From: Candidatus Eiseniibacteriota bacterium
Lineage (GTDB): Bacteria; Eisenbacteria; RBG-16-71-46; CAIMUX01; VGJL01
NCBI GenBank assembly: GCA_041946735.1
Contig: JBHGAY010000022.1
Coordinates: 1-64,000 of the forward strand
Length of the DNA: 64,000 bases
Direction: 5' to 3'
Below, piece after piece: positions 5,455-48,025 of the stretch (its first letter is position 1; the number at the start of each line of letters is the position of its first letter). The position numbers and the translations under genes were made by a program. The notes beneath the pieces are model-generated. The model saw nothing but the letters and a program-made list of their open reading frames with translations. It was not told the origin of the DNA and ran no database searches.

Positions 5455-5623
5455 GCCCAGCCCCCGGCCCTTTCCTCCCAAGACCCGACAGGCGATCGGC
5501 GCGTCTCCGCCCTTCTCCGCCAGCCTCCGCCGGCCTCCGCCCCAATTTCCTCGTGCGCTTTTGCGATCCCCGCGTGTTTCCCCTGGTCGACGATGCCGCA
5601 CCGGCACGCCCGGCCGTTCCCAA

Positions 5624-30966: not shown

Positions 30967-33174
30967 TCACCGAGTCATCACGATCCGCTGGCTGGCCGCC
31001 GCGCCGTCCGTCGTGACGCGAGCGAGATAGATCCCGGGCGCCACTTCCCGGCCCTCACTGTCTCGGCCGTCCCAGGGGACGTAATGGGTACCCGGACCCA
31101 TCGCGCCGCTCGCGAGGCTTCGAACCAGCCTTCCGCTGATGTCCACGATCGTCGCCCGCACTGAGCAGCCCGCGGCGGGAAGCTCGAGGCGCAACACAGC
31201 CGATCCCCGGGCCGGGTTGGGAAGGACGCCGAGTTTCAGCCCGGCGTCCGCGCCGCCGGCGAGATCCGCGACGCCGCTCGGCGCAACCGGGCAGATGTTC
31301 TCGAGGATCACCAGACCACTCGGTCCCGCCAGGTACAGATCGGAGTTGCGGATCAGAATCGTGCTCACATCCGGGACGTGCATCGTCGCGACGATCCGCG
31401 GGTCGGTCGGCTCGGAAATGTCCACCTGGTACACGAGATCGGCGTCCGCGCAGAATGCGTACGAGGCGTTTGCGCCGTCGACTGCGACAACTGCGAGTGA
31501 CGTTCCGGTGTCCGACGTGCCTACGAGTGCCGGGATTGCGGGATTCGAAACGTCGATCACCGCGAGGCCGCCGCTGCCGTCCGCGAGGTAGGCGTAGGAG
31601 CCGGATACCGCGACGCGCTTGGCGTCCGTCGTGTCGAGCTGGCCCACGATCGCCGGATTCCGAGGATCCCGGATGTCGACGACATAGAGGCCCCATGTGG
31701 TGGCAGGGAGATACGCGTAGCCTTCCGATAGCGCCAGCGAGTAGACGTTGTGGCCCTGGATCGAGAGGGAGGCGACGATGGCGGGCCACGCGGGATCCGA
31801 CACGTCGATCACCTGGAGACCCCGGCCGCCGTCTGCGACATAGGCATAGGAACCGGAGATGGCGACCCCGCGAGCGTGCCCCGGCGTGTCCGCGATCCCG
31901 ACGACCTGCGGATCCCTCTCATCCGAGATGTCGAACGTCACGAGGCCAAAGTCGTCGTCGGCGAGGAATGCGTAAATGCCTCGGACCGCGACGTCCCGGG
32001 CGGAACCGATAATCGTGCCGCTTCCTAGGAACTGCGGCTTCACGGGATCCCAGAAGTCGTACAGCGCGATGCCGCCGGGCACCACGAGGCAGCCCAGGAA
32101 GTTGTCGATGACCAGGTCGCCGATGGTTCTGTCCAGCGGCCGTTCGGCAGTGTCGAGCTGACTCACGTCGACCACGACGAGGCCGAACTCCTCGTCGGCC
32201 ACGTATGCGTAGTCCCCCGAGAGCGCGAATCCGGTCACGCCAGAGTGATAGTCGGCGAAGGACACCGCGCCGACGACCCGCGGAGCGAGGGGATCGCTGA
32301 AGTCCGCGGCGACCACACCGCCCAACGTCGTCATCAAGGCGTGCGTTCCCTTCACGGCGAGGGTCCATCCGCTCGTGTAGGTGTCGCTGAGACGCAGGAG
32401 CTGCCCGGGGTCCGAGATGTCGATCACCTCGAGACCCATCCCGCAGCCCGCGTAGGCATAGGTGCCCTCGGTCACGACGTCGAAGTACTGGTAGTAGTCG
32501 GTCCCGAGGGAGTCGAGGACTCGCGGATGCAGCGGATCGCGGACGTCGACCGAAGTGAACACGCCCTCGCCGGCGACATACGCGATGGTGCCGGCGACCG
32601 TCACTCCGAAGTCATATTGAGAGGTCTTGATGCTCGAGACGATCTGCGGATGGGCAGGATCGTCGACGTCGATGAAGATCAAGCCCGCAAAGCCCCCCGC
32701 GACGCAGGCCAGGAATCCCGGATGCGACGAGTCTTGACAGATCGCGATCCCGTTGCCCTGCTTCGGCAGCTGGACGCTCCCTTGGAGGCGGGGGTTCCTG
32801 GGATCTTTGAGATCGATGACGCGGAATACCGCGGAGTCGCTGGCGCCGGTGACGTAGGCATGCCTGCCGGAGATCGTGATGCAGCCGGCGGGCGGCATGT
32901 CGAGATGGCCGACCGGGGTCGGCTTCTCGGGGCTCGAGATGTCGAGCACGTCGAGCCCCCCGGGATCGCGTGTGACGACGTACGCATAGTGGCTCGAGAT
33001 GGCGACGTCCTGCGGCCGACCCGGGATGGCAGTAGTCGCGACGACGTGGAGGTAGTCGCCGTACTCGACGCAGGGGGCGGACGAGGACGAAGGCGCCTGT
33101 AGCAGCGCCGCGATCAGTCCGAGGGTCAGCGCTAGGGTCAGCCGCAGGGTCAGGCGAGGGATGCGCGCATTCAT
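30967..33174 (-). CDS. Secreted LVIVD-repeat beta-propeller protein with C-terminal FlgD-Ig-like domain
   Basis: Repeated VAVSGSYAYVAD..GLxVIDVSDP; tail PNPARG...WDGRDSEGREVAPGIY. Confidence 0.88.
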   Translation of the reverse strand: MNARIPRLTLRLTLALTLGLIAALLQAPSSSSAPCVEYGDYLHVVATTAIPGRPQDVAISSHYAYVVTRDPGGLDVLDISSPEKPTPVGHLDMPPAGCITISGRHAYVTGASDSAVFRVIDLKDPRNPRLQGSVQLPKQGNGIAICQDSSHPGFLACVAGGFAGLIFIDVDDPAHPQIVSSIKTSQYDFGVTVAGTIAYVAGEGVFTSVDVRDPLHPRVLDSLGTDYYQYFDVVTEGTYAYAGCGMGLEVIDISDPGQLLRLSDTYTSGWTLAVKGTHALMTTLGGVVAADFSDPLAPRVVGAVSFADYHSGVTGFALSGDYAYVADEEFGLVVVDVSQLDTAERPLDRTIGDLVIDNFLGCLVVPGGIALYDFWDPVKPQFLGSGTIIGSARDVAVRGIYAFLADDDFGLVTFDISDERDPQVVGIADTPGHARGVAISGSYAYVADGGRGLQVIDVSDPAWPAIVASLSIQGHNVYSLALSEGYAYLPATTWGLYVVDIRDPRNPAIVGQLDTTDAKRVAVSGSYAYLADGSGGLAVIDVSNPAIPALVGTSDTGTSLAVVAVDGANASYAFCADADLVYQVDISEPTDPRIVATMHVPDVSTILIRNSDLYLAGPSGLVILENICPVAPSGVADLAGGADAGLKLGVLPNPARGSAVLRLELPAAGCSVRATIVDISGRLVRSLASGAMGPGTHYVPWDGRDSEGREVAPGIYLARVTTDGAAASQRIVMTR

Positions 33175-33321
33175 GGTCGGGCACTCCTTTCGAGCCGCGC
33201 GAAGCTCACGGTAGCGGGAACGACAAACGCCGGCACGAGGAGCAGGCCGCGGCGAAGGGGGAGTGTCAGGGGTCGAAGGAACGCAACGGCACAGCGCGCG
33301 AGGGCGCGGCCGCCTCTTCGC

Positions 33322-33361
33322 TCATCGCTGCTCTTTCACCGCGACGATACTAGCACCGCGG
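33322..33361 (-). repeat. Copy 2 of the 40-bp intergenic element (extended -10-like TGCTAGTAT)
   Basis: 35/40 identical to 29418-29457; TTGCTC lies 16 nt upstream on the minus strand. Confidence 0.8.
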
Positions 33362-33562
33362 GGGCATCGAGCAAACGAACGACTGTGAGGGCGGGGGGCG
33401 GCTGTCCGCATCGGCAGGATTGTCGTGATTCCGCTAGGCGGATCGCCGGGAGGCGGATAGGATCCCCGGTTCCGAAAGAGCCCCGCGAGGGGCGAGAGCT
33501 CGCTGACGTCGTAGGCCGCGCACCCGTGGCAACCAACACGACCGCGAAGAAAGGTCCTCACG

Positions 33563-34789
33563 ATGTTCCCAGAGCCTTCCAATCGAGATCGGTCTATGGC
33601 CCGCGCTCTCCGGCGCCTCACAGGTGTTCTCGGGTTCGCGCTCGCGTGCGTCCTGTCGCTCGTCGGCGCGGCCTTCGCGCCCGCCCCCGCGATTGCCTCC
33701 CTCCCGCCGTACGCAGAGCAATGGTTCACGCCGGGTCAGCCGGAGGACGTCGACGTCGACGTCTACGGCCGCGTCTGGGTTGCGTGCTCGGACGATTCGG
33801 TCCGTGTCTACTCGTCGCGCGGCGGCCAGCTCCTGTTCTCCTTCGGCGGCAGCGGCGAGGGGGACGGCCAGTTCCACGATCCCTTCGGGATCCAGTTCGC
33901 CCCGGACGGGACGGTGTACATCTGCGACTACGCCGGGACGCGCGTCGAGCGATTCACGAGCGAAGGAGACTTTCTTCTCTCGTGGCCGATCCCGAGCGAC
34001 CGCGCCGACCACGTCGCGATCGACGACCTGGGCGATGTCTACGTGACCGGCTTCTCGAACGGCTTCATCCATAAGTACGACGCCGTCGGGAACCCGGTCG
34101 TGGAGTGGCCGAGCGTGAGCGGCGGCCGTCCCTCGGGTGTCCTGGTGATGGGAGGGATCCTCTACGTCGTCCCGTGGGATGTCTACGAGATCGAGCAATA
34201 CGCGCTCGACGGGACCTATCTCGGCTCCTTCCCGATCGAGACCGCATTCGGCGTCGATCTCGAGCAGGACGCGCTCGGTCAGCTCTGGCTCGCCGACTGG
34301 ATCAACGGCGTGCTCCGCGTCTACACGGCGGATGGCCAGCCGGTCGAGGTCCTGGGAGAGTTCGGCAGCGACCCGGGCCAGTTCAACGGCCCGGCCGGGA
34401 TCGCGTTCGGGACGGAGGGCTCGGTCTACGTCGCGGACCAGTTGAACGGCCGCATCCAGCGCTTCGGAGACGTCTCGGCCGACGTGCCCGCTTCGGGTGG
34501 CCGGATCCTCGCCTCGCTCGCGCTCCGCGCAATCACGCCGAACCCGAGCCGCGGCGAGGTCGCTCTCGTCTATTCCGTCCCGCGCTCCGAACGGGTCGTC
34601 GTGACCGTGGCCGACTTGTCGGGACGTCGGGTCGCCACGCTCGCCGATGCACCGGTGAGCGCCGGGCAGCACCAGCTCTCCTGGGTCCCGCGCGGAGAAG
34701 ACGGGCGCCGGCTTCCCACGGGCACCTACTTCGTCCGGGTGCAGGGGGAGAGCGGGGCGAGCGTGGGACGGCTGATTCTCCTGCAGTGA
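33563..34789 (+). CDS. Secreted NHL-repeat protein with C-terminal FlgD-Ig-like domain
   Basis: GEGDGQFHDPFGI, GQFNGPAGIAF..VYVADQLNGRIQRF; tail PNPSRG...GRRLPTGTYF. Start may be ATG 33596. Confidence 0.85.
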   Translation: MFPEPSNRDRSMARALRRLTGVLGFALACVLSLVGAAFAPAPAIASLPPYAEQWFTPGQPEDVDVDVYGRVWVACSDDSVRVYSSRGGQLLFSFGGSGEGDGQFHDPFGIQFAPDGTVYICDYAGTRVERFTSEGDFLLSWPIPSDRADHVAIDDLGDVYVTGFSNGFIHKYDAVGNPVVEWPSVSGGRPSGVLVMGGILYVVPWDVYEIEQYALDGTYLGSFPIETAFGVDLEQDALGQLWLADWINGVLRVYTADGQPVEVLGEFGSDPGQFNGPAGIAFGTEGSVYVADQLNGRIQRFGDVSADVPASGGRILASLALRAITPNPSRGEVALVYSVPRSERVVVTVADLSGRRVATLADAPVSAGQHQLSWVPRGEDGRRLPTGTYFVRVQGESGASVGRLILLQ

Positions 34790-34936
34790 TAGGAGCGACC
34801 CTGAACCAGGCTTGGGTCGTTGACGGTGACCGTCCTCTCGGTGCAGGGGCGGGTCGCCGATCGGCCGGAGCCTCGATCCGCCAGTGGTTCGTCACCCGTT
34901 GGGGCCCTGCCGCTCCCCTGCAGGAGGGTTATCGCC

Positions 34937-37900
34937 ATGTCCACGAGATCCAGCGCGCGTCCAGTGAACGTTCCTGCCGCGACCGGCACGATTCGACCTC
35001 TCCGCGCACCGGCCGCCCTCCTGAGTATGTTGGGCATCCTGCTCATCGTGCCTATCGTTCAGCCGGCCCGCTCCGAGGCCGACCCCGCCCGCAACTCGGA
35101 GTCACCGCTGCCGCCGAGCCTTCTGCAGGCGGGAGGCGACGCGACCTGGTGGCATACGATCATCACGGATCTCGCGCGCCGGGAATACGACGTTACGGCG
35201 ACTTCCACGGGAGACCTGCAGGCGCCCAACCGGAGCCAGAACCTGCGCGCGACATTTCGGCCGACAGGGATCGCGGTCGTGCCGCGCGCGGACGAGAACG
35301 CTGCGCCCGCTTGGCGGTTCGCTTGGGAGACGCGCGGCATCGGGCGCGAAGGTGAGATCGAGACGACCGGTCCTGTCACCCCCGAGGCCGTCGGTGCGCG
35401 CGTGACATACACCCACGGCGGGTGGAGCGAGTGGTATGAAAACACGGCGAATGGACTCGAGCAGGGGTTCACCGTGGCGCAACGGCCGCCGGGCGATCGT
35501 CCGCTTCGGATCGAGGGAAAGGTCTCGGGCGGCGGCACGCTCGAAGCGCAGCAGAACGAGAACGGCGCGATCGACTTCCTCGATGCTCACGGCGCGTGCG
35601 TGATCCGCTACGGAGAACTGCACGCGCGGGACGCCCGAGGAAGCGAGCTGCCGTCGAAGCTGATCGCTTCGGGAGAACAGCTCGCAATCGAGGTGGACGA
35701 TTCCCGTGCCGTCTATCCCCTCGCCGTCGATCCGTTGCTCTCATCTCCTGCCTGGACCGCCGAGAGCAATCAGGCGAGCTCCAACTTCGGCGTGTCGGTG
35801 GCGACGGCCGGCGACGTGAACGGCGACGGCTACTCCGATGTCATCGTCGGCGCCTCCAACTATGACAATGGCCAGACCAATGAGGGAGAGGTATTCGTCT
35901 ACCAGGGCTCGCCCGCCGGCCCGAGCAGCGTTCCCTCCTGGACCGCGGAGAGCGATCAGGCGGGGGCTCTGTTCGGCTCTTCGGTGGCATGCGCGGGTGA
36001 TGTCGACGGCGACGGCTACTCGGACATCATCGTCGGCGCCTATGACTACGATAACGGGCAGGACAACGAGGGACGGGCCTTCGTTTTTCTCGGCTCGGCC
36101 TCGGGACTCGGCGCGTCCGCCGCCTGGACCGCCGAGAGCGATCAAGCGGGCGCTCTCTTCGGCTATTCGGTGGCCTCCGCGGGTGATGTGAATGGCGACG
36201 GATTCTCCGACGTCGTCATCGGGGCCTACAGCTATGACAACGGCCAGTCCAATGAGGGGCGCGCGTATCTGTACAACGGCTCGAACGCGGGGCTGCAAGC
36301 CTCACCCGCCTGGACGGCAGAGAGCGATCAGGCGAATGCCAACTTCGGCTTCTCCGTGGCCACTGCCGGGGACATCAACGGGGACGGCGACTCGGATGTC
36401 ATCGTGGGCTCCATCACGTTCAGCAACGACCAGTCGGGCGAGGGCAGGGCCTTCGTGTATCACGGCTCTCCTGGTGGATTGAGCGCGGCCGCCGCCTGGA
36501 CAGCGGAGAGCGACCAGGCCCAGGCGTTCTTCGGGTGGTCCGTATCGACGGCCGGGGATGTGAACGGCGACGGATACTCCGACGTGATCGTGGGCGCAGT
36601 CAGCTTCGACGACGGGCAGGAGAACGAAGGACGAGCCTATGTCTACGAGGGCTCTGCAGCCGGTCTCGGCACGGTCGACTGGATCGCGGAGAGCGACCAG
36701 GCCTTCGCCGAGTTCGGCTGCTCCGTGGCCACGGCGGGGGACGTGAACGGTGACGGATACGCGGACGTCCTGGTCGGCGCCGACTCGTACGACAACGGGC
36801 AGACCAACGAGGGGCGGGTCTTTGTCTATCAGGGTTCCGCAGCGGGCTTGCCCAACTCACCGACCTGGACGGCAGAGTCCGACCAGGGGGGAGGTCTTTT
36901 CGGAACTTCCGTGGCATCCGCGGGGGACGTGAATGGTGACGGATACTCCGATGTCATCATCGGCGCGACGGGATTTGACAACGGGCAGACCGATGAGGGC
37001 CGCGCCTTCGTGTACCTGGGCGCGCCGAGCGGGCTTTCTCTCACCTCCGGATGGTTCGCCGACGGCGGCCAGGACGATGACCGATTCGGCTATATGATCG
37101 CGGCAGCGGGCGATGTGAATGGCGACGGCTACGGTGACGTGATTGTGGGGGCCCCGTTGTTCGACCATGGCCAAACCGGTGAGGGGATGGCGCTCGTCTT
37201 CCATGGCTCGCCCGACGGGCTATCGTCCTTCCCCGCATGGACGGTGGAGGGAAACCAGGAGGACTGCACCCTCGGCATCGCGGTGGGGACGGCCGGCGAC
37301 GTCAACGGCGACGGCTTCGCGGACGTCATCGTGGGCGCCGACGGCTATGACCATGGCCAGTCCCGCGAAGGCGGCGCCTTCGTCTATCTCGGTTCCGCGG
37401 CCGGGCTGTCGACCACGCCGGCGTGGACGTTCGAGAGCGACCAGGTGGACGCGCTCATGGGGACGGCGGCCGGATGCGCCGGCGATGTGAACGGCGACGG
37501 CTACTCGGACGTTCTCGTCGGTTCGGAGATCTACGACAACGGCGAGCAGGATGAGGGACGGGCCTACCTCTTCGAGGGATCGAGCACGGGCCTCTCCGCG
37601 GCCCCGGCCTGGATCGCGGAGGGTGACCAGGCGGGAGCCCGATTCGGTTCCGCCACGCGGACGGCGGGGGATGTGAATGGCGACGGTTTCTCGGATGTGA
37701 TCATCGGGGCGCCGTACTACGACAACGGCCAGACGGACGAGGGACGCGTCTACGTATACGAGGGTTCCAGCACGGGCCTGTCCGCGACCCCCGCCTGGAT
37801 GGTGGAAGGCGACCAAAGCGAGGCCACGTTTGGAGCCTCGCTCGGCACGGCAGGCGACGTGAACGGCGACGGCTACTCCGATGTCATCGTGGGCGCCGTG

Positions 37901-39055
37901 CAATACGACAACGGGCAGTCGCAGGAAGGCGCGGCCTGGATCTACATGGGCTCGGCCGGAGGCCTCGCGACCTCGCCGGCCTGGGTGCAAGAGGGGAATC
38001 AGGCCGGCGCCTTCTTCGGCTGCTCGGTCGGGACCGCCGGGGACGTGAATGGCGACGGCTACTCCGACATCATCGTCGGAGCCATGCTGTACGACAACGG
38101 ACAGAGCGAGGAGGGCCGGGCGTTCGTGTACCACGGCTCGGCCAGCGGTGTCGCGACGGCGGCCGCCTGGGCAGCGGAGGGGGATCAGACGAACGCGTTC
38201 TTCGGTTACTCGGTCGCTGCCGCCGGCGACGTGAACGGCGACGGCTTCTCCGATGTGATCGTCAGCGCGATCTACTACAACAACGGACAGGCCGCCGGTG
38301 GGCGGACCTTCGCCTACTACGGCAATGGAGGCGATGGGCTCGATCGCCTCCCGCTCCAGGCGACGACGGACGACTCGAAGCTCATCGCGCTCCTCGGCGC
38401 TTCCGATTCGGATACGGCGTTCCGTCTCCGGGCGCTCGGTCGCACGTGCACGGGGCGCGGCCACGTGCGGCTGCAATACGAGGTGAAGCCGGCCGGGATG
38501 CCGCTGGATGGAACTGCGCTCGGAGACGGCCCGCTGGTTGACACCGGCGCTCCCGGCCCGGCTGGCAGCGTCGTTGGTTTGAGTGAGCTCGCGAGCGGGC
38601 TCACCTCCGCGACCCTCTACCACTGGCGCCTGCGGACCGTCAGCGACTCGCCGTTCGCTCCGCTCTCGCCGTGGTTCGGGATGACCGGCAACGCGCTGAG
38701 CGAGGCCGACCTCCGAACCCAGGAGCCGCTGACCGGCGTCGACGAAGACGGGGCCGCCGCTCCGCAGCGAGCTGGTGATCGGCTCGGCGCTCCCGTTCCG
38801 AACCCGCTCGTCTCGTTGACGCGGTTCGCGTACACGCTGTCGGAAGGCGGTCGGAGCCGACTGGCGGTCTACGACATCGCTGGCCGGGAGGTCGCGGTTC
38901 TGAGGAACGGAGTCCTCGCGGCAGGACGGTACGAGGAGTCGTGGGACGGACGCGATGAGCGAGGCAAGGAGGTGCGGAGCGGTGTCTACTTCCTCCGCCT
39001 CGATCGTGGCGGTCGTGGGCAGGTCGACGTCCGGAAGCTCATCAAGGTGCGATAA
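34937..39055 (+). CDS. Large secreted FG-GAP repeat protein with N-terminal extension and C-terminal FlgD-Ig-like domain
   Basis: Regular WTAESDQ...AGDVNGDGYSDVIVGA..YDNGQTxEG repeats; N-terminal EWYENTANGLEQGF; tail WDGRDERGKEVRSGVY; GGAGG SD. Confidence 0.9.
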   Translation: MSTRSSARPVNVPAATGTIRPLRAPAALLSMLGILLIVPIVQPARSEADPARNSESPLPPSLLQAGGDATWWHTIITDLARREYDVTATSTGDLQAPNRSQNLRATFRPTGIAVVPRADENAAPAWRFAWETRGIGREGEIETTGPVTPEAVGARVTYTHGGWSEWYENTANGLEQGFTVAQRPPGDRPLRIEGKVSGGGTLEAQQNENGAIDFLDAHGACVIRYGELHARDARGSELPSKLIASGEQLAIEVDDSRAVYPLAVDPLLSSPAWTAESNQASSNFGVSVATAGDVNGDGYSDVIVGASNYDNGQTNEGEVFVYQGSPAGPSSVPSWTAESDQAGALFGSSVACAGDVDGDGYSDIIVGAYDYDNGQDNEGRAFVFLGSASGLGASAAWTAESDQAGALFGYSVASAGDVNGDGFSDVVIGAYSYDNGQSNEGRAYLYNGSNAGLQASPAWTAESDQANANFGFSVATAGDINGDGDSDVIVGSITFSNDQSGEGRAFVYHGSPGGLSAAAAWTAESDQAQAFFGWSVSTAGDVNGDGYSDVIVGAVSFDDGQENEGRAYVYEGSAAGLGTVDWIAESDQAFAEFGCSVATAGDVNGDGYADVLVGADSYDNGQTNEGRVFVYQGSAAGLPNSPTWTAESDQGGGLFGTSVASAGDVNGDGYSDVIIGATGFDNGQTDEGRAFVYLGAPSGLSLTSGWFADGGQDDDRFGYMIAAAGDVNGDGYGDVIVGAPLFDHGQTGEGMALVFHGSPDGLSSFPAWTVEGNQEDCTLGIAVGTAGDVNGDGFADVIVGADGYDHGQSREGGAFVYLGSAAGLSTTPAWTFESDQVDALMGTAAGCAGDVNGDGYSDVLVGSEIYDNGEQDEGRAYLFEGSSTGLSAAPAWIAEGDQAGARFGSATRTAGDVNGDGFSDVIIGAPYYDNGQTDEGRVYVYEGSSTGLSATPAWMVEGDQSEATFGASLGTAGDVNGDGYSDVIVGAVQYDNGQSQEGAAWIYMGSAGGLATSPAWVQEGNQAGAFFGCSVGTAGDVNGDGYSDIIVGAMLYDNGQSEEGRAFVYHGSASGVATAAAWAAEGDQTNAFFGYSVAAAGDVNGDGFSDVIVSAIYYNNGQAAGGRTFAYYGNGGDGLDRLPLQATTDDSKLIALLGASDSDTAFRLRALGRTCTGRGHVRLQYEVKPAGMPLDGTALGDGPLVDTGAPGPAGSVVGLSELASGLTSATLYHWRLRTVSDSPFAPLSPWFGMTGNALSEADLRTQEPLTGVDEDGAAAPQRAGDRLGAPVPNPLVSLTRFAYTLSEGGRSRLAVYDIAGREVAVLRNGVLAAGRYEESWDGRDERGKEVRSGVYFLRLDRGGRGQVDVRKLIKVR

Positions 39056-39304
39056 TGTCTTCACCTTCTGACTTCAGCCTTCCAGTGACGGGAGGGCGGA
39101 GGAGGCATGGGCCTCTCTCGCTCTCCCGTTCTTCTTTGCTTCTTGTTCGGGATTGCTCGCACTACGGGGGAGAGAATGGGCAGGCCTGAGGGCCGGGCCG
39201 GACGGAGCGGGACCCACCATGCGGCCATGGTGCTGTCAACAGGACGGGGGCCTTGTTGGGCCGGTCCCTTCACCCGGGCGCCGGAAACCGGGCGAACGCA
39301 GCGG

Positions 39305-39600
39305 CGACGCGTGAACTGCTGATTCGGACCGCGTCGAATCGGGAGTCGACGCGTCGATGTTGCACTCGCCCGGCGCCGGTCGTCGCTTCGACGCGTCGAT
39401 GCTCCCCCCGCCCCGTCGCCGGTGTCGCCCCGTGTCGCCTTGTGTCGCCGATTGTGTCGCCGGAGACGTTTCGGACGCTTCGATGTCGTCTGCGACCGCC
39501 GCCGGAAGCCGCTCCGACGCGTCGATGCCGCATTCGCCCGGCGCAAGTTCTTCTTCTGACGCGTTGTCGGAATTCGGACGATCGCCGGCGGCGAGCCGCG
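39305..39600. repeat. Degenerate 42-bp-period repeat array with palindromic core CGACGCGTCG(ATG)
   Basis: Core starts at 39305, 39347, 39389, 39473, 39515 and 39557 (multiples of 42); a second motif CGCCGG recurs at offset 26-28 in most units. Confidence 0.72.
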
Positions 39601-39972
39601 CGAACGTCGAACGCTCGACGATAAAAACGCGTCGCCATGCCATTCCGCAGCCGTCGGATGCAGCACCGGCGCTTCCGCGGGCCGTCCGACGACCGTCGAA
39701 AGCGGACACAAGAAGTTCTTCTCGTATCCACCCACCGTCGCGCGCAGCACTGACGCATCCGTCCCGCCCTCGACGCGCTCCCGTCGCAGCTCCGACGCGT
39801 CTCGGCATCGTTCTGGCGATGGCGTGTCCAGCGGGGGTGGGTGGATGCGGCGTTCGACCGTCGCAGGACGATGATTCCGAACGTCGATGCTGCGTCCTCC
39901 CGGATTCGGAAGCCCAGAGGACCGAAACAGGACCGGCTCGCCCGGTCCCCAGGAGGAAAGGAGGAGCAGGGG

Positions 39973-40740
39973 ATGCGATTCCCCGATCCCACGATCAGTC
40001 CCGAACGGATGCTGTACGTCTTCGGGGGCTACCACCTGAACCGGCTGCGCGCGGACGAGGAGACCGTCGATCTCGCCAACGCGTTCGGCCAGGCCCAGGA
40101 TGCGCTCCGCATCCGTCTCGATGAGCACCGGGAGGCCGAGGCCGCGACGATGACCGCCCTGGCGGTCCGCGACTCGAAGGACGACAAGCTCGACGATGCC
40201 GTCCGGGTCTGCTGCTTCAAGGTGCTCGAGAAGGTGCTCAACAACCGCAAGGACGCGCGCTTCCTGAACCTCTTCCCCGGCGGCATGACGCCGATGATCA
40301 CCGAGGCGCCGGAGGACGAGGTCCGCGAGGTGTTGCTCCTGGCGGCGAAGCTCGACAAGGAGACCGACGTCGAGCTTCACGCCCAGGCGGCCCCTCTGCG
40401 GGCGGGAGCCGAGGCGCTCCGCCAGGCGATCTCGGACTACAACGGGATCGCCGACCGGGAGGCGCTCGCCCTGAGCGCCCTCCAGGACGAGAAGCGCAAG
40501 TGGATCGACGCTTACGCCTACAGCTACCGCCAGCTCCAACTCCGCTTCTACCAGGACCCGAAGAAGGCCGAGCGCTACTTCCGCCCGGCGCGGAAGGTCA
40601 GCAGGGGCGGGGCGGAGGAGGAGGGGGAGTCGGTGACGGAGGTGCCGGAGCAGGAAGCGGCGGTGAAGGCGGTAGCGGGTGCGGCGAGCGCGAGCGCTAG
40701 CGCTGCTGCAACGCAGGCGCTGAATGTGGAGGAGGTGTAG
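39973..40740 (+). CDS. Hypothetical all-alpha-helical protein
   Basis: Strong SD (GGAGGAG), codon usage like host genes, amphipathic helical sequence, no recognisable catalytic motif. Confidence 0.8.
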   Translation: MRFPDPTISPERMLYVFGGYHLNRLRADEETVDLANAFGQAQDALRIRLDEHREAEAATMTALAVRDSKDDKLDDAVRVCCFKVLEKVLNNRKDARFLNLFPGGMTPMITEAPEDEVREVLLLAAKLDKETDVELHAQAAPLRAGAEALRQAISDYNGIADREALALSALQDEKRKWIDAYAYSYRQLQLRFYQDPKKAERYFRPARKVSRGGAEEEGESVTEVPEQEAAVKAVAGAASASASAAATQALNVEEV

Positions 40741-40997: not shown

Positions 40998-41222
40998 ATG
41001 ACCCTATCTCGTATCACAACAGACGCGGATGTCTGCGGCGGGAAGCCGTGCATACGCGGTCTTCGGTTCCCGGTCTCTCGTCTTCTCGGTCTCCTCGCTG
41101 CCGGGGAAAGCGAGGAGTCAATCCTCCGTGACTACCCGTATCTGGAGAGGGAGGACATTCGCGAGGCATTGAACTACGCCTCGCTCCTCGCAGACGACCG
41201 GGTGATCGATCTAGCTACGTGA
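40998..41222 (+). CDS. DUF433 family antitoxin
   Basis: RITTDADVCGGKPCIRGLRFPV...ILRDYPYLEREDIREALNYA. Confidence 0.9.
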   Translation: MTLSRITTDADVCGGKPCIRGLRFPVSRLLGLLAAGESEESILRDYPYLEREDIREALNYASLLADDRVIDLAT

Positions 41223-41576
41223 GATTCCGCCTCGACATGCCGGTGTCGCCCGGACTGGCCCGATCGCGGTCATGATGTAGTCCACGCGGGGGATATCGGG
41301 CTCGACCGAGCCCCGGATCGCATGATTCTGCAGCGGGCTCACGACGAGCACCGAATCGTAATCACGGCGGACCTCGATTATCCGCGACTTCTGGTCCTGA
41401 GCCTCGCGGTAGGCCCCGGCCTCATCTTGTTCCGAGGTGGGAACTATTCCGAGCGAGAGATGGAGAGCCTCCTGGAGCGAGTGCTCGAATCCGTGACGTC
41501 GAAGGAGCTCACAGAATCCGTCTGCGTTGTGGACAAGCATCGGATCCGCATCACAAAGCTACCGGTGCAGCCCTAG
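41219..41576 (+). pseudogene. DUF5615/VapC45-like PIN toxin, frameshifted
   Basis: GTG 41219 (overlapping the antitoxin stop) reads VRFRLDMPVSPGLA then TGA at 41273; GHDVVHAGDIGL...IVITADLDY continues in another frame. Confidence 0.75.
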
Positions 41577-42076
41577 GCATCGGCATCCGGGGAACTGTCT
41601 CCTCCGGGTGAATCCGCTGGACGCCGCAGGTCGGCGAGTGCGATTCCCGACGAACTGGCACTGCCCCAGACCGGGTGACGTTTGACCCCCGAGCCGCTCG
41701 TCGTCATAGAGGAGGACGACGGCGTCGAGCGTCGAGTGGCGGCGCGTGTCGCGGATCGCGATTCCGGCGCGGTCGATGTGGGCGAGGTGGTGCGGCGGCC
41801 GGGCGAGGCCCGTCCAGCATACCCAGTCGGGGGGTGACAGGCGTTGACGCCCCTTGCACAGGGCAAGTATGTGCGGCGGGCGAGGATAAGTGCTTGAGCC
41901 ACGTCGCGCGGTCCGATACTCTGGTCCCGCCCATCTGAGCGAAAGCGGACGAATCGGGCCGATGTCGGAACCGAGGGGCAGTGCCAGGTCGATCCGTCCG
42001 CGAGTACGGAGACCGATGACCGCGATCGGAACGAGCATCACGCGATCGAATGGTGGCGGCGGGAAGGGAACGGACT

Positions 42077-43015
42077 ATGGCGCTGGCGACTGACAGCCCG
42101 TCGGCCGCCGATGCCCGAGTTCGAATCGAGGCCTTCCGGTGGCTGCGCGAGCAGGTTGCCGCGCTTGGCGATGTTCTCCCGCTCGACCTCCTACGGAGGG
42201 GCTTCACGCTCGACGGCGCCCGGGTCCCGCTCGTCGGTCCCCAGGGCATCTTCAAGCCCGCCGTTCTGCCCGAGCTTCCGTTGTCCATCACGACCGTCTT
42301 GAACGGGCCTTACGCCGACAGCTTCACGCCGGAGGGTCTCATCCGCTACCGCTATCGGGGAACGGATCCTAGTCATCACGAGAACGTGGGGCTTCGCAAA
42401 GCGATGGCCCGCCGCACACCGTTGATCTACTTCCACGGGGTCGCCACCGGAAGGTACTTGGCCGTTTGGCCCGTGTTCATCGTCGGCGACGATCCTGCAG
42501 CTCTGTCGTTCACGGTCGCCGTCGACGACGAGCAGATCGCCGAGGAGTCGGCCAGGGACGCCGATGGGCTCGCCGCGTCCGTGCAGGAGACGGAGGGGCG
42601 CCGGCTTTACATCACCACCTCAGTCAAGGTCCGCCTGCATCAGCGCGGCTTCCGGGAACGCGTGTTGCGCGCCTACCGGGAGCAGTGCGCTCTGTGCCGG
42701 CTCCGGCATCGCGAACTGCTCGACGCCGCCCACATTATCGGGGACTCGGAAGCCTCGGGCGATCCGGTCGTGCCCAACGGGCTGTCATTGTGCAAGATCC
42801 ATCACGCGGCATTCGATGGCCTGTTCATCGGAATCCGGCCGGACTACGTGGTCGAGGTGCATCCCAGGATTCTGGGCGAATCCGATGGCCCGATGCTGCG
42901 GCATGGCCTGCAGGGATTGCACGGGTCGAAGATCCTCCTGCCGTCCCAGCGCGCGAACTACCCGGACCGCGACCGGCTGGAGGAACGACATAGACGATTC
43001 CGAAGCGCCGCGTGA
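42077..43015 (+). CDS. HNH endonuclease with putative SRA/PUA-like N-terminal domain
   Basis: RLHQRGFRERVLRAY..QCALC..LLDAAHI..NGLSLCKIHHAAFD; N-terminal QGIFKP..LSITT..YADSF..IRYRYRG. Confidence 0.85.
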   Translation: MALATDSPSAADARVRIEAFRWLREQVAALGDVLPLDLLRRGFTLDGARVPLVGPQGIFKPAVLPELPLSITTVLNGPYADSFTPEGLIRYRYRGTDPSHHENVGLRKAMARRTPLIYFHGVATGRYLAVWPVFIVGDDPAALSFTVAVDDEQIAEESARDADGLAASVQETEGRRLYITTSVKVRLHQRGFRERVLRAYREQCALCRLRHRELLDAAHIIGDSEASGDPVVPNGLSLCKIHHAAFDGLFIGIRPDYVVEVHPRILGESDGPMLRHGLQGLHGSKILLPSQRANYPDRDRLEERHRRFRSAA

Positions 43016-43119
43016 TCGCAAGGGCGTCGAGGTGAGGAGGGGCGCATGAAGTACGAGGTCGCCTATCGGAAGCCGAGGCAGCGGTTGGGGCGAGCGGATT
43101 GGCCTTCAAGGTGAAGCAG

Positions 43120-43316
43120 AGCAACTGGCGTCATGCCAATCCGTGAAGGTGCTACCAGTGAACCCGGAGTTCGAGCCGATGGAATTCTCTAGCGAAGACG
43201 AGGGCCGGCTGGAAGTTGTCGCCGAATGCGTGGAGGTGTTGAGAGGCACGCCGGGCATAAGGATCGCCCAGCATCGGGAGGCACGTACGGGCATTCGAAG
43301 CATGGGACTCGACTGA
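43120..43316 (+). pseudogene. Possible degenerate S24/LexA-like C-terminal domain fragment
   Basis: WRH in one frame, VKVLPVNPEFEPMEF...LEVVAECVEVL in another; recognised by eye only. Confidence 0.35.
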
Positions 43317-44260
43317 TGAGAGCCTTTCTCGCCGTCACCGACAACGACTGGTTCCGCTTTCTGCGTGCCCAGCCAGGGATTGACGAGGTCAACTTCTGGC
43401 AGCCGAGCGGCGGCACAGCGTTCCGGGCACTCCAGACCGGGCAGCCGTTTCTCTTCAAGCTGCACCACCCCGAGAACTTTGTTGTTGGTGGCGGATTCTT
43501 CGCCCACTTCTCGCTTCTGCCCGCAAGACTGGCGTGGGAAGCGTTCGGGATCAAGAACGGCGCGGCGGAGCTCGGGGAGATGTGGCGACGGATCGCCAAG
43601 TACCGGCACCGCGTGCTGGACGAGCGGGACCAGCAGATCGTCGGCTGCATCATTCTCGTGGATCCATTCTTCCTCGACGATCGGGACTGGATCCCGGTGC
43701 CCAAGGACTTCAGTCCGAACATCGTCCGCGGGAAAGGCTATGACCTGTCCCGTTCTCCGGGCCGCGAACTTTGGAGTCAGGTCCTCGCCGCACGCGCAGC
43801 CTCGATGTCCGTTCAGCGGTCGCGGGTGGCTGACAAACAGCTGCTGCTTTCCGACAGCCCTATGTTCAGCGAGCCGGTTCCGGTTCGCCGTCGGCTCGGC
43901 CAAGGATCGTTCCGCGTCGTGATCACCGACCTCTACCGCCGCAAGTGCGCGGTGACGGGGGAGAGGGCTCTCCCAACCCTTGAGGCGGCGCACATCCGCC
44001 CGGTCACGCGGGACGGCCGTCACTTGACGAGCAACGGGCTGCTACTTCGCTCCGACGTCCACCGGCTGTTCGACGACGGCTACGTCACGGTCGACCGTGA
44101 CCTCCGCTTCCGCGTCAGCTCCCGGCTCAAGAAGGACTTCGACAACGGGGAGGAGTACCGCCGATATGCCGGTCAGCTGCTCTGGGTGCCGACCTCGGCC
44201 GAGGACCGGCCGGACCCAATGCTGCTGGAGTGGCACGCAGACACAGTGTTTCGGAAGTAA
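43316..44260 (+). CDS. HNH endonuclease with putative PUA/EVE-like N-terminal domain
   Basis: AVTDNDWFRFL..EVNFWQP..PFLFKLH..IVGC; RRLGQGSFR..CAVTG..LEAAHIRP..NGLLLRSDVHRLFD. Confidence 0.85.
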   Translation: MRAFLAVTDNDWFRFLRAQPGIDEVNFWQPSGGTAFRALQTGQPFLFKLHHPENFVVGGGFFAHFSLLPARLAWEAFGIKNGAAELGEMWRRIAKYRHRVLDERDQQIVGCIILVDPFFLDDRDWIPVPKDFSPNIVRGKGYDLSRSPGRELWSQVLAARAASMSVQRSRVADKQLLLSDSPMFSEPVPVRRRLGQGSFRVVITDLYRRKCAVTGERALPTLEAAHIRPVTRDGRHLTSNGLLLRSDVHRLFDDGYVTVDRDLRFRVSSRLKKDFDNGEEYRRYAGQLLWVPTSAEDRPDPMLLEWHADTVFRK

Positions 44261-44297
44261 CCAGCCAGCGCCGGGAATCTCCGTGGGGGGACCCGAG

Positions 44298-44940
44298 ATG
44301 ATCGATCAAAGGGTAGCAGACCGCATCGGGAAGGTCGGCGACGAGCTCTCCGCGAAAGGCGAACTCCTCGCTTCGGCTCAGCTGGTGCGATATTGCGTAA
44401 CTTTTCGATCCCGATTTGGTCCCGAGGTTCTCGCGGGTCTCGACGGCGAGAAGCTCCTCGAGACGATGCACGACAACCTCAACCGGGACAGCTTGGTCTA
44501 CTGGCTAGAGTTCAAGAACGGCGATGAGTTCCCTGCCCGCTCATTCCGCGGCATTGCGGGCGGCAGCGCCCTCGAGTTCGGGATCTATGGGCGCAGGAAG
44601 TCGGGCGCCTGGATGACGGGGAGCCCGCAGAAACAGGAGGAGATCCCGCTCGACCAGGCGATCGAGATCGCGCGCCAGCATCCACACGAGTTCCGGCAGG
44701 GTGCGGAGCTGCTGGCGGCCTTGCCGCGTCACGCGTCGGACGGGGACTATCGCGAGCTCCAGAAGAAAGATGGACAGAGTAGCGCCCTCCGTGAGCGACT
44801 CGGCGTGGGGGCACAAGTTTCGGCGTCCTCTTCCCCGACAAACTCGACGACCATCATGCCCCGAGCACCAGAGGTTCCACCTCATCGAGCTTTTGCAGGT
44901 ACCGCCTGGTCAGGGACGGTACTTGGCCGGAGGCCGCCCC
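44298..44940 (+). pseudogene. Truncated, frameshifted N-terminal part of a McrB-like protein
   Basis: FGPEVLAGLDGEKLL..SLVYWLEFKN..GGSALEFGIY, then AWGHK, LFPDKLDD and QRFHLIELLQ spread over different frames; no NTPase domain follows. Confidence 0.55.
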
Positions 44941-44956
44941 GAAGCAGGATCTCTGA

Positions 44957-46057
44957 ATGAGCCGCGTGCACCTGAAACGCTTGGAGCGTAGGAAGATCGG
45001 AGGCTTCGGTGACGAGATGAAGCTCTCGGTCCCGTTACCGAAGACCCCAAAGGGCATGATCCATCAGCGGTGTCCCTCGGAGTCGTGCAGACCGCGGCTT
45101 TTCGAGTTGGGGAACGGGGCGCCTGACCGATGCATCGCGCACGGGAATCAGCATCTCGTTCGACGACAGATCGGTACGCCAGGTATCACCTGCCCTTACT
45201 GCGGTGGGGACGCTCCCGATGACGAGTACATCTGCGAAGAGGATGTTCGCTACGCCCGGGAGCTCATCGGCTGGGAAGCTGGCAGGGACATGCAGGACTT
45301 CATGGCCGAGGAGGCCAGGAGGTTCAACCAAGAAGGAGACTTCGGTCTCTTCAAGGTTCGCATGGAGGTCAAGGGCAACAACCGTCGCCGCCCGGTTGCC
45401 TGGCGTGAGGATTTGCTGCGCGATCTGACGTGCGACATCTGCGGACGACGATACGGTGTCTTTGCGATCGGTCTCTTCTGCCCCGATTGCGGAGCCCGCA
45501 ACGTCCACGTCCATTTCGCGCGGGAGATCGAGCTGGTTGAGCGGCAACTTGCTCTCGCGCAGGAGAAGAGGCAGACGGACGAGGAGCTTGCCTACCGGCT
45601 GCTGGCCAACGCCCATGAGGATGTGTTGACTGCATTCGAGACCCACCTCAAGACGATCTACCGGTTCCTTTGTCCCCGTCGGCTTGCTACTGACGTCGCC
45701 GCCGAGAAGTGCCGCAATCTGCGGAACAGGTTCCAGAATGAGAAGAAGGCCGAGAACCGGTTCAAGGATCTGAGCATCGATCTCTTTGCGGCATTGAGCG
45801 AGGACGAGCGCGGGAAACTCTCGGCGAACATTCGGAAGCGCCACATCGTCGGACACAACCTCGGAATCGAGGACGATGAGGACGTCGAAACGAGGAACGC
45901 CGGCACGGTCGTCTCCCTCCTTGTGGAGGACGTCCGAGGATTCGTCGCGATCTGCAAAAAGGTCATCATCTCGCTTGAGGAGCAGCTTCCCGAGTTGCTC
46001 CCTCCGTCAAATCAGGAACCTGAACCACCACAGGAAGGTGAGTCGATCGGGAGGTGA
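44957..46057 (+). CDS. Hypothetical multi-Zn-ribbon protein with C-terminal HEPN-like RxxxxH motif
   Basis: CPSESC, CPYC, CDIC and CPDC motifs; helical C-terminus with RFQN and KRHIVGHNLG. Confidence 0.7.
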   Translation: MSRVHLKRLERRKIGGFGDEMKLSVPLPKTPKGMIHQRCPSESCRPRLFELGNGAPDRCIAHGNQHLVRRQIGTPGITCPYCGGDAPDDEYICEEDVRYARELIGWEAGRDMQDFMAEEARRFNQEGDFGLFKVRMEVKGNNRRRPVAWREDLLRDLTCDICGRRYGVFAIGLFCPDCGARNVHVHFAREIELVERQLALAQEKRQTDEELAYRLLANAHEDVLTAFETHLKTIYRFLCPRRLATDVAAEKCRNLRNRFQNEKKAENRFKDLSIDLFAALSEDERGKLSANIRKRHIVGHNLGIEDDEDVETRNAGTVVSLLVEDVRGFVAICKKVIISLEEQLPELLPPSNQEPEPPQEGESIGR

Positions 46058-46060
46058 CTC

Positions 46061-46741
46061 TTGGCCCGCGTCCGGAAGATCCAGCGCAACCCTTCCTCGG
46101 GGATGAACCACTTCGTCGTCGATGCAAACTTCTTGGCGAACAAGTTCGTCCCGGGATCATCGGCCCCGGACGCCCATCAAAAGATACGCATCGAGCGGTG
46201 TTGCGAATGGTGGGAGGAAATCGACGCGCAGGTCGGACATAAGCGGGCGCGGGTCTATGCTCCTGACATCTGCGTAGCCGAAGCTTTCAAGGTCCTTGCC
46301 AAGAAGTACTACGAGGAGCAGTGGTTCAAGACGGCGGTCACGTTCAACAACGCTCGCCTTCGTCTCCGTAAGTTCATCACTACTCCGACGAGGACGCTCC
46401 GAGCCGCGCGGCGGCATATCAAGTTCCACGACATCTCGACCACGAGAGACATCATCATCTCCGTCGATCGTTTCTATGAAGCGTTCCACAAGCACAAGAA
46501 GAAGGTCCAACTCCCCGATTTGATTGTCGTCGCGACGGCGAAGTACCTGCTCGACTTCTACGACGTCCCGAAGCAGCAGCTCCATATCGTCACGCTCGAT
46601 CGTGCGCTCCGGGAGGGATCCAAGTTCATCCAGGAACTCCCCAACGCCTACGATCCGACGGAGCCGTCGGACTCCAAGGACATAGTGTTCACCGGGGACG
46701 TCTTCAGACCGCGACGGCGGAAGCGTCGCAAGAAGCCATAG
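46061..46741 (+). CDS. PIN-fold domain protein
   Basis: FVVDANFL, PDICVAEA, LPDLIVVATA, IVTLDRAL give PIN-like acidic spacing; SD GGAGGT before TTG (alternative ATG 46103). Confidence 0.7.
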   Translation: MARVRKIQRNPSSGMNHFVVDANFLANKFVPGSSAPDAHQKIRIERCCEWWEEIDAQVGHKRARVYAPDICVAEAFKVLAKKYYEEQWFKTAVTFNNARLRLRKFITTPTRTLRAARRHIKFHDISTTRDIIISVDRFYEAFHKHKKKVQLPDLIVVATAKYLLDFYDVPKQQLHIVTLDRALREGSKFIQELPNAYDPTEPSDSKDIVFTGDVFRPRRRKRRKKP

Positions 46742-47140: not shown

Positions 47141-47230
47141 GGAGAGATGGCCGAGTGGTTGAAGGCGGCGGTCTCGAAAACCGCTGTGGGGGTAACCCCA
47201 CCGGGGGTTCGAATCCCTCTCTCTCCGCCA
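47141..47230 (+). tRNA. tRNA-Ser (CGA)
   Basis: GGAGAGA/TCTCTCC acceptor stem, gcggt-ctCGAaa-accgc anticodon arm, long variable arm, GTTCGAATC, CCA. Confidence 0.96.
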
Positions 47231-47486
47231 GTTCCTATGCGGCGGGCGCTCGAGCCCGCCGAATTGCGTCCGGCCGTGTAGTCCGAGTCCGTGGGCAATG
47301 AGGGGCATCATTCGCGCCGCGAGCCCGTCCCGATCACCGGGGCCGGCGGTCCCATAGAAGACCAGAGGTCCGGGCCGAGCATCTGCGCCCCCCGAACCAC
47401 CCCGAAAAAGATGCGGTTGAGGCAGGATGGGGCGGCCCCTATACTCGCGATTCGATCGCGGTTCGACCGCGGTTGGCAGCCACGGC

Positions 47487-47577
47487 GGAGAGATGTCCGA
47501 GTGGTTGAAGGAGCACGCCTGGAGAGCGTGTAGGCGTGAATAACGCCTCCAGGGTTCGAATCCCTGTCTCTCCGCCA
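47487..47577 (+). tRNA. tRNA-Ser (GGA)
   Basis: cacgc-ctGGAga-gcgtg anticodon arm, long variable arm, GTTCGAATC, CCA. Confidence 0.96.
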
Positions 47578-47642
47578 GAAAATCAAGAGGGAGCGGGTCG
47601 GCGCGACCACGAACGCGCGATCAGCGGACCTCAGGTCCATTT

Positions 47643-47715
47643 GGGGATGTAGCTCAGCTGGGAGAGCACCTCGTTCGCAACGAGGGGGTCGGCGGTTCGA
47701 ATCCGCTCATCTCCA
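47643..47715 (+). tRNA. tRNA-Ala (CGC)
   Basis: GGGGATG/CATCTCC stem with G3:U70, cctcg-ttCGCaa-cgagg; CCA not encoded. Confidence 0.96.
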
Positions 47716-47743
47716 CATTTTTTTCGTCCTTCTTTCTGTCCTT

Positions 47744-48025
<282 letters not shown>

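Follow-up and report, generated by a model that had tools for sequence, protein, structure and literature searches.

A palindromic tandem-repeat array with an exact 42-nt period stands upstream of the gene for an unnamed all-helical protein family in distant bacteria

The stretch of DNA analysed here (the window) comprises the first 64,000 nucleotides of contig JBHGAY010000022.1 (assembly GCA_041946735.1) from a Candidatus Eiseniibacteriota bacterium, and contains a 917-nt gap between the end of an FG-GAP protein gene (39055) and the start of the next gene (39973). This gap holds a non-coding array of near-palindromic units with a period of exactly 42 nt, and the gene following it (39973-40740, plus strand; GC content at third codon positions, GC3, 0.91; start conserved) encodes an all-helical protein of 255 aa whose family has no name. 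An array of the same period is found upstream of two further members of the family, and from this recurring pairing we infer that array and downstream gene constitute a conserved two-part module, with the array placed first. Tentatively, and with somewhat less than even confidence, the array is interpreted as a series of helically phased, dyad-symmetric DNA binding sites coupled to a dimeric form of the helical protein.

The array is built around an exact 13-mer core, CGACGCGTCGATG, present at 39347, 39389 and 39515 and nowhere else on either strand of the window (three copies versus 0.02 expected by chance, a count reached by none of 100 shuffles). These copies are spaced 42 and 126 nt apart, all in a single 42-nt phase, and the autocorrelation of positions 39290-39600 peaks at lags of 42 (0.457), 126 (0.454) and 84 (0.405). 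Across the entire window, Tandem Repeats Finder (TRF) reports period 42 in just one of 23 rows with a score of at least 60, at the array only. The original prediction had listed six cores in this phase: the three above are exact, while those at 39305 (CGACGCGTGA), 39473 (GGACGCTTCG) and 39557 (TGACGCGTTG) are degenerate, with two mismatches each. Further, the 39305 core belongs to an inverted copy of the unit on the minus strand (39282-39314; position weight matrix (PWM) score 15.4). The array proper comprises six plus-strand units in exact register at 39347, 39389, 39431, 39473, 39515 and 39557 (39347-39598), with alignment in the 42-nt register being traceable across 39305-39598. As originally noted, the 39431 unit lacks the core and yet keeps the phase; at positions 39431-39472 a repeat of 10-12 nt, TTGTGTCGCCG (TGTCGCC-type), takes its place in 2.8 copies and leaves the register unbroken. 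The second predicted motif, CGCCGG at offset 26-28, is seen in five of seven units, and the weaker GACGC cores are likewise present, at 39752, 39771 and 39793.

Units of the window array are mutually 60-80% alike, and their variation is organized in blocks, with conserved cores and free linkers. A PWM of the unit, scanned over both strands of the 64 kb, returned nine matches, all inside the gap (including the four training units). A shorter 10-mer core allowing up to one mismatch showed no enrichment, with 17 occurrences in the window against 26.6 expected.

The primary evidence for a relationship between array and protein comes from other loci. A search querying a four-sequence alignment produced 429 pattern matches, among which a single locus, L001, was confirmed. 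This locus, from an Acidobacteria metagenome-assembled genome (MAG), encodes a homologue with 39% identity (ATG at 4004), and is preceded by a TRF-detected period-42 array (3758-3915) that ends about 80 nt before that ATG, with two weaker units extending back to 3674. The L001 array has a lag-42 autocorrelation of 0.615, is the sole period-42 array in the 6.3-kb locus and has units approximately 75% identical to each other; a PWM of its unit gives seven matches, all in the gap (again including four training units). Additionally, P0165 (507 aa), clustered with P0007 at 90% identity, is a read-through form with an in-frame upstream extension containing seven 14-aa units in exact register (residues 111-208, about 93% unit identity), which ends 56 aa before the Met of the family. 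P0163 (230 aa) and P0165 are probably alternative calls of one locus, since the same 58,442-nt longest contig is listed for both. Thus, the periodicity check on homologue flanks, which had been set beforehand, found a 42-nt array in both further loci, and overall such an array occurs in all three loci with at least about 400 nt visible upstream, namely the window, L001 and P0165. Comparison of the window and L001 upstream regions by blastn detects no similarity, indicating that the period is conserved and the sequence is not. With about nine TRF arrays of period 20-60 per 64 kb in the window, one of them having period 42, a coincidental period-42 array in a flank of about 1 kb would be expected, as a rough estimate, in less than about 1% of cases. 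The helical-protein gene is the only gene common to the window and L001 loci.

Inspection of the units reveals dyad symmetry: each is near-palindromic, with two dyads per 42 bp separated by about 21 nt. In the window, a spacer-less 12-bp perfect palindrome, TCGACGCGTCGA, is exact at 39346 and 39388, with partial symmetry extending to about +/-17 nt, and a second palindrome, CCGGCGCCGG (39370-39379), is centred 23 nt from the centre of the first. The L001 unit instead features a 9+4+9 inverted repeat, CCGTCCCGG-cgtt-CCGAGACGG, along with a GGGCCC centred exactly 21 nt away. At symmetric positions that do not form Watson-Crick pairs, G-T and A-C mispairs are balanced (8 versus 7 in the window and 6 versus 7 in L001). 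Such balance is predicted for symmetry at the level of DNA, and not for a stem selected in one RNA strand. As RNA, the arrays fold modestly better than shuffles, the favored strand being inconsistent between loci: the z-scores are -2.3 (plus) and +0.4 (minus) for the window array, and -2.3 and -2.0, i.e., about equal, for the two strands of L001.

The protein encoded downstream had been described as an orphan. This does not hold: although word-indexed protein searches recover only the protein itself or one relative, an exhaustive HMMER search yields 228 representatives of 50%-identity clusters at E <= 1e-3, and 80 at E <= 1e-10. Most relatives are 210-250 aa long, with alignments beginning at residue 1, and the family is defined by full-length similarity, a conserved N-terminus and the conserved residues F101, G104, W177, L188 and F203. 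Each protein for which names were retrieved, across 30 clusters, is annotated as 'hypothetical protein', with P0165 the one read-through form among them. Named relatives come from MAGs of Acidobacteriota, Candidatus Eisenbacteria and Latescibacterota, and Gemmatimonadota, Bacteroidota and Myxococcota are the commonest sources in the additional clusters from the Atlas. Two members, P0013 and P0178, come from a single Eisenbacteria MAG (locus tags ACE15D_), and many members lie on contigs of just 1-3 kb. A Pfam scan of 16 longer members detects no fused domain, and tblastn searches with P0001 against plasmids and phages, and with P0012 and P0050 against plasmids, gave no match. The uncharacterised DUF6261 (PF19775) appears to be a weak relative, with two of 68 members matching it at E = 0.017, which is under any cut-off, and one Atlas structural neighbor at a template modeling (TM) score of 0.52; the accessible portion of the DUF6261 literature looked unrelated to the helical family.

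The predicted all-helical character is upheld by an AlphaFold2 model based on a 68-row alignment (predicted local distance difference test score, pLDDT, 90.4). The helical domain spans about 210 residues and is dominated by two long helices (29-87 and 139-191, each exceeding 50 residues), which are separated by a group of short ones; beyond the domain, the chain ends in an acidic tail that is disordered. Foldseek searches of the PDB and BFVD with this model, another of the checks proposed at the outset, found nothing at E <= 0.001, and a profile search of PDB sequences returned coiled-coil noise only. A homodimer model reaches an interface score (ipSAE) of 0.50, as opposed to 0.00 for the best control, with at least 81% of contacts shared by three runs and a partner pLDDT of at least 88. 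In calibration, 20 of 30 proteins solved as homo-pairs attained this mark, as did one of 23 solved as single chains; these counts apply only roughly, since a custom alignment was used here. The modeled interface is symmetric and involves the most conserved helices (residues 15-28 and 53-71). Taken together, the modeling supports dimerization of the helical protein.

These observations allow a functional proposal, on which the original prediction had been undecided: the array might yield processed small RNAs, or it might be a phased set of protein-binding sites, in either case acting together with the protein. The pairing of array and protein does recur, and between the two options the dyad symmetry without a strand-specific G-U bias, together with the exactly conserved 42-bp period, leans toward DNA over RNA. 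Forty-two base pairs correspond to four turns of B-DNA; with dyads about 21 bp apart, all sites would therefore lie on one side of the helix. Such phasing would account for a period that is conserved exactly, since units longer or shorter by 1 bp would turn each site progressively away from its neighbors. A symmetric dimer might load cooperatively on sites so arranged, and the dimers might build a nucleoprotein platform upstream of the gene that controls its expression. The most economical candidate for the binder is the product of the gene itself, because it is the sole array-linked gene in both loci read as DNA, because a symmetric dimer is predicted for it and because the unit sequence shifts between loci, as needed for a partner that co-evolves.

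Several observations weigh against this proposal. The protein has no recognizable DNA-binding domain and no match in Pfam, NCBIfam, PADLOC or PHROGs, and its best fold match in the PDB is the McpS sensor domain (E 8e-3, TM 0.5). The window protein is acidic (domain pI 5.75; net charge of the tail -7), although across the family the pI of the domain has a median of 8.85 and a range of 5.2-11.1. No promoter that the array might control was found: a promoter and terminator scan and a separate scan for sigma-70- and sigma-54-like sites gave nothing usable. The window units are decayed and lie 370-700 nt from the start codon, and the plus strand of the window array folds somewhat better than shuffles, which an RNA role would also explain. 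Further, the recurrence comprises only two additional loci, with P0165 seen only as a translation. Among other extended members, P0143 has a 73-aa upstream extension without periodicity, though it covers only about 220 nt, and in P0053 the domain is reduced to its C-terminal half, preceded by 333 aa that are unrelated and free of repeats.

In terms of layout, the closest solved precedent is sopC of the F plasmid, which, in the part of the source available, is described as a direct repeat of 43 bp present in 12 copies, with SopB binding a 16-bp inverted repeat in every copy (PMC3177203). Both systems share tandem direct repeats of 42-43 bp with an inverted-repeat motif in each, adjoining the gene of the presumed binder, and in both the sites would be phased on one helix face. 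However, Pfam scans of 17 window open reading frames (ORFs; 30967-52689) and 12 L001 ORFs detect no ParA or ParB/SopB homologue; the context here is chromosomal, with no plasmid match in tblastn for three family members; and the array precedes the gene instead of following it, with a protein that is an unrelated helical bundle. The iterons of plasmid replication systems offer a second parallel, being phased direct repeats beside the gene of their binder, with a repeat sequence that co-varies with the protein. Their usual period, however, is about 22 bp versus the 42 bp seen here, and the helical protein has no Rep-family domain and no replicon context. Repeats of the CRISPR type were also considered and rejected, in agreement with the initial assessment: at period 42 the conserved part spans 13-33 nt, the remainder of each unit is a degenerate copy of the unit rather than a unique spacer, and Rfam shows no CRISPR family in the gap.

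The strongest competing interpretation, which we hold to be unlikely, is that of a type III toxin-antitoxin (TA)-like system. Here, the array would be transcribed and cut into 42-nt units that bind and restrain the helical protein, with a hairpin before the gene setting the ratio of RNA to protein; the system would then found a family of its own, its toxin having no relation to those described. The order of tandem repeats, short palindrome and single ORF would fit the locus criteria of Blower et al. 2012, as given in the accessible text, and 42 nt falls inside the unit lengths stated there, namely 40-48 nt for cptIN, 39-57 for tenpIN and 31-62 for toxIN; the same text considers further type III families as probably still undiscovered (PMC3401426). 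A hairpin precedes the ribosome-binding site (RBS) in both loci, that of the window being a 7-bp stem on the plus strand, GGACCGG-ctcgc-CCGGTCC, in the interval between array and RBS (39930-39948). Additionally, a unit length that is kept while the sequence differs by locus would suit an RNA-protein pair co-evolving in a fixed geometry; the window gene has TA and restriction-like neighbors; and the plus strand of the window array folds with z = -2.3.

On the other side, the protein is all-helical, is unrelated to the ToxN, CptN and TenpN endoribonucleases and matches no ToxN/AbiQ, CptN or TenpN model in PADLOC or Pfam. The hairpins are short (7 bp in the window and 5 bp in L001), are not followed by a terminator-like U tract in either case and fold no better than shuffles (z = 0.05 and 0.85). 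Within the units, the symmetry is DNA-like: the absence of a G-U bias specific to one strand and the inconsistency of the better-folding strand (the plus strand alone in the window, neither strand clearly ahead in L001) speak against a selected RNA, and a perfect palindrome without a spacer makes a poor RNA hairpin. Unit length varies in the known families and is exactly 42 in all three loci here, and there are at least 6-7 units as against 1.9-5.6 in the accessible part of the published survey (PMC3401426). Moreover, most window units are too decayed for active antitoxins, and the window protein is acidic. An Rfam search of the gap finds no family at the gathering score, and at an E-value threshold only chance-level microRNA-type matches.

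A less probable explanation, to which we accord only a small likelihood, is that the array is a minisatellite devoid of sequence-specific function, i.e., a 42-bp slippage-prone upstream region or a copy-number (contingency) tract in which the palindromes are by-products of high GC content. The gradation of unit identity, from about 93% in P0165 through 75% in L001 to 60-80% in the window, looks like arrays caught at successive points of growth and erosion; the searches above detected no binder, no promoter and no RNA family; and the many members on 1-3-kb contigs look as if repeats break their assemblies, although this is a weak point, as short contigs are common. However, a neutral array would not be expected to survive divergence of the protein to 35-39% identity across phyla, or to arrive three times at exactly 42 nt on the same side of the same gene. 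The rarity of period 42 among the TRF rows of the window and the concentration of within-unit conservation in the palindromic cores are equally at odds with it.

The possibility that the array is a sequence encoding a 14-aa repeat, decayed or real, had been the main alternative raised in the original prediction, and is now very improbable. The candidates would be a plus-strand ORF (39357-40124) or a divergent minus-strand gene (39236-39808 in the window; 3227-3943 in L001). It is true that 42 is divisible by 3, that open frames run over the arrays on both strands in both loci, that the minus-strand translations of the window and L001 share a loose I-x-x-S-E/K-R-R look and that the P0165 array is open in the frame of its own gene. 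Against this, the gap has no codon-phase GC signal, as the prediction of no credible gene there had implied. GC at the three codon positions (GC1/2/3) is flat in all array ORFs (0.64-0.75; about 0.64-0.71 for those over the window array on both strands), in contrast to the asymmetry of GC3 over GC2 in three of the four genes checked (34820-39055, 39973-40740 and 42050-43015; GC2 0.42-0.53 and GC3 0.81-0.91), the fourth, the short DUF433 gene, having a GC3 of just 0.66. Mismatches between units are spread evenly over the codon phases, without an excess at the third position: the counts in the window are 29/26/26, and in L001 they are 18/17/24 over six units and 10/9/13 over the four best. A Pfam scan of the array ORFs matched no family. 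Further, a GC content of 67-74% makes long open frames likely by chance alone, the plus-strand ORF continues out of frame into the real gene, and the contig of P0165 is probably also called as the 230-aa P0163. On the basis of the flat GC1/2/3, the even mismatches and the lack of a Pfam match, the coding interpretation is disfavored and the gap array is non-coding.

Equally remote is a local cluster of extragenic palindromes of the REP (repetitive extragenic palindromic) or BIME (bacterial interspersed mosaic element) type: the units are imperfect palindromes of 20-40 nt that do not all point the same way, located between two co-directional genes, as REPs often are in the available part of the source (PMC3733652), and L001 has unrelated REP-like 120-nt hairpins nearby, but REPs are high-copy and dispersed, whereas no unit match occurs outside the gap in the 64 kb, nor in L001, and a strict 42-nt register tied to one gene family in three loci is unlike REPs. 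The remaining probability goes to explanations outside those listed.

Other features of the gap accompany the array. At its left edge, the inverted unit and the direct 39347 unit form an imperfect inverted repeat of about 100 nt (39275-39380; 39-nt arms, 77% complementary). Downstream, the region 39599-39910 contains degenerate unit copies out of strict register, at 39644 (minus), 39751 (plus) and 39835 (plus), together with the weak GACGC cores; the PWM scores of these copies are 12-14, a score unmatched anywhere outside the gap, and direct-repeat detection likewise places copies at 39752 and 39836. A long-range inverted repeat (39723-39849; 19-nt arms at 39723-39741 and 39831-39849, 84% complementary, fold z = -1.9) encloses the weak cores. 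Upstream of the array, a hairpin with 19-nt arms (39088-39106 and 39111-39129) followed by a T-rich run lies on the plus strand at 39088-39150; it is terminator-like and marks the end of the FG-GAP transcription unit, separating the array from that transcript, though it was not called by a consensus terminator scan. Immediately before the helical-protein gene, the strong Shine-Dalgarno signal noted earlier proves to be a double motif (AGGAGG ... GGAGGAG; 39951-39966, plus strand).

The broader neighborhood looks chromosomal, with a GC content of about 67-72% and dnaX, recR, tRNAs and the signal recognition particle (SRP) RNA close by. Upstream of the gap (30967-39055), large, repeat-bearing proteins of the secreted type follow in succession, i.e., LVIVD, NHL and a 1411-aa FG-GAP protein, each with a C-terminal FlgD_ig or Por_Secre_tail-like domain; the FG-GAP gene contains coding repeats of 186 nt. 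Downstream lie an antitoxin-like gene of the DUF433 type (40998-41222) and, after it, a toxin-like ORF of the DUF5615 type (41322-41576) that covers only positions 40-109 of the 110 in the profile; the toxin gene looks frameshifted or truncated, because its N-terminal part appears in another frame from about 41222. Next come two HNH_2 paralogues (42050-43015 and 43226-44260) resembling restriction endonucleases that bind phosphorothioated DNA, with scores below the cut-off, and two more ORFs in 42050-46741 give weak PADLOC candidate matches (PDC-M14A and PDC-M07B). GC falls to 0.60-0.65 across 42050-46741, and right after this stretch three tRNA genes and the large SRP RNA (47141-48017) stand ahead of dnaX (48134) and recR (50273). 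The stretch from 40.9 to 47 kb may be an island inserted beside a tRNA cluster. The defence-like island foreseen in the original prediction is only partly supported, by the DUF433/DUF5615 pair, the two HNH genes and the weak PDC candidates.

In L001, imperfect inverted repeats of 50-60 nt (3172-3260 and 4912-5032; 86% over 50 nt), containing (CCTCATCA)n 8-mers, bracket array and gene. A mobile cassette was considered on this account and rejected as a general feature, as no such repeats are present in the window. Farther on, at 4770-5330, a unit of about 280 nt occurs twice in tandem, with hairpins bearing 44-45-nt arms (4786-4901 and 5065-5182) and GGTGAGG-type 8-mers, and looks REP-like or like a miniature inverted-repeat transposable element (MITE). 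The GC-rich block at 1500-5500 of this locus is flanked by DNA of 45-53% GC.

The coupling of a repeat array to the gene of its partner is known from other systems; what is new here is the unrelated protein. In the accessible portions of the literature on DUF6261, type III TA systems, sopC and 42-bp palindromic tandem repeats, no description of the helical family or of its pairing with an array was found, and the occurrence of this pairing in distant bacteria points to an undescribed nucleic-acid/protein module. That the exact period is retained across phyla despite turnover of the sequence speaks strongly for a specific partnership between a nucleic acid and a protein. A broader conjecture, which we consider doubtful, is that a repeat-encoded RNA or phased DNA array is the specific co-evolving partner of a new helical dimer, in a module widespread in soil and sediment phyla (the named relatives being from Acidobacteriota, Eisenbacteria, Latescibacterota, Gemmatimonadota and Myxococcota), one form of which would be a fourth type III-like RNA-antitoxin or abortive-infection family with a toxin fold unlike ToxN.

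For the family itself, which counts at least 228 clusters at 50% identity without a name or a Pfam or NCBIfam model, the array provides the first testable handle. An upstream period-42 array could serve as a search key for further members, and such arrays may explain the assembly fragmentation of these loci. If the array acts as RNA, type III TA systems would gain a toxin family in addition to the three already known and would reach phyla in which hardly any have been recorded. If instead it acts as phased DNA, as we tentatively favor, the module would represent a chromosomal analogue of the centromere and iteron arrays of plasmids with a new kind of binder.

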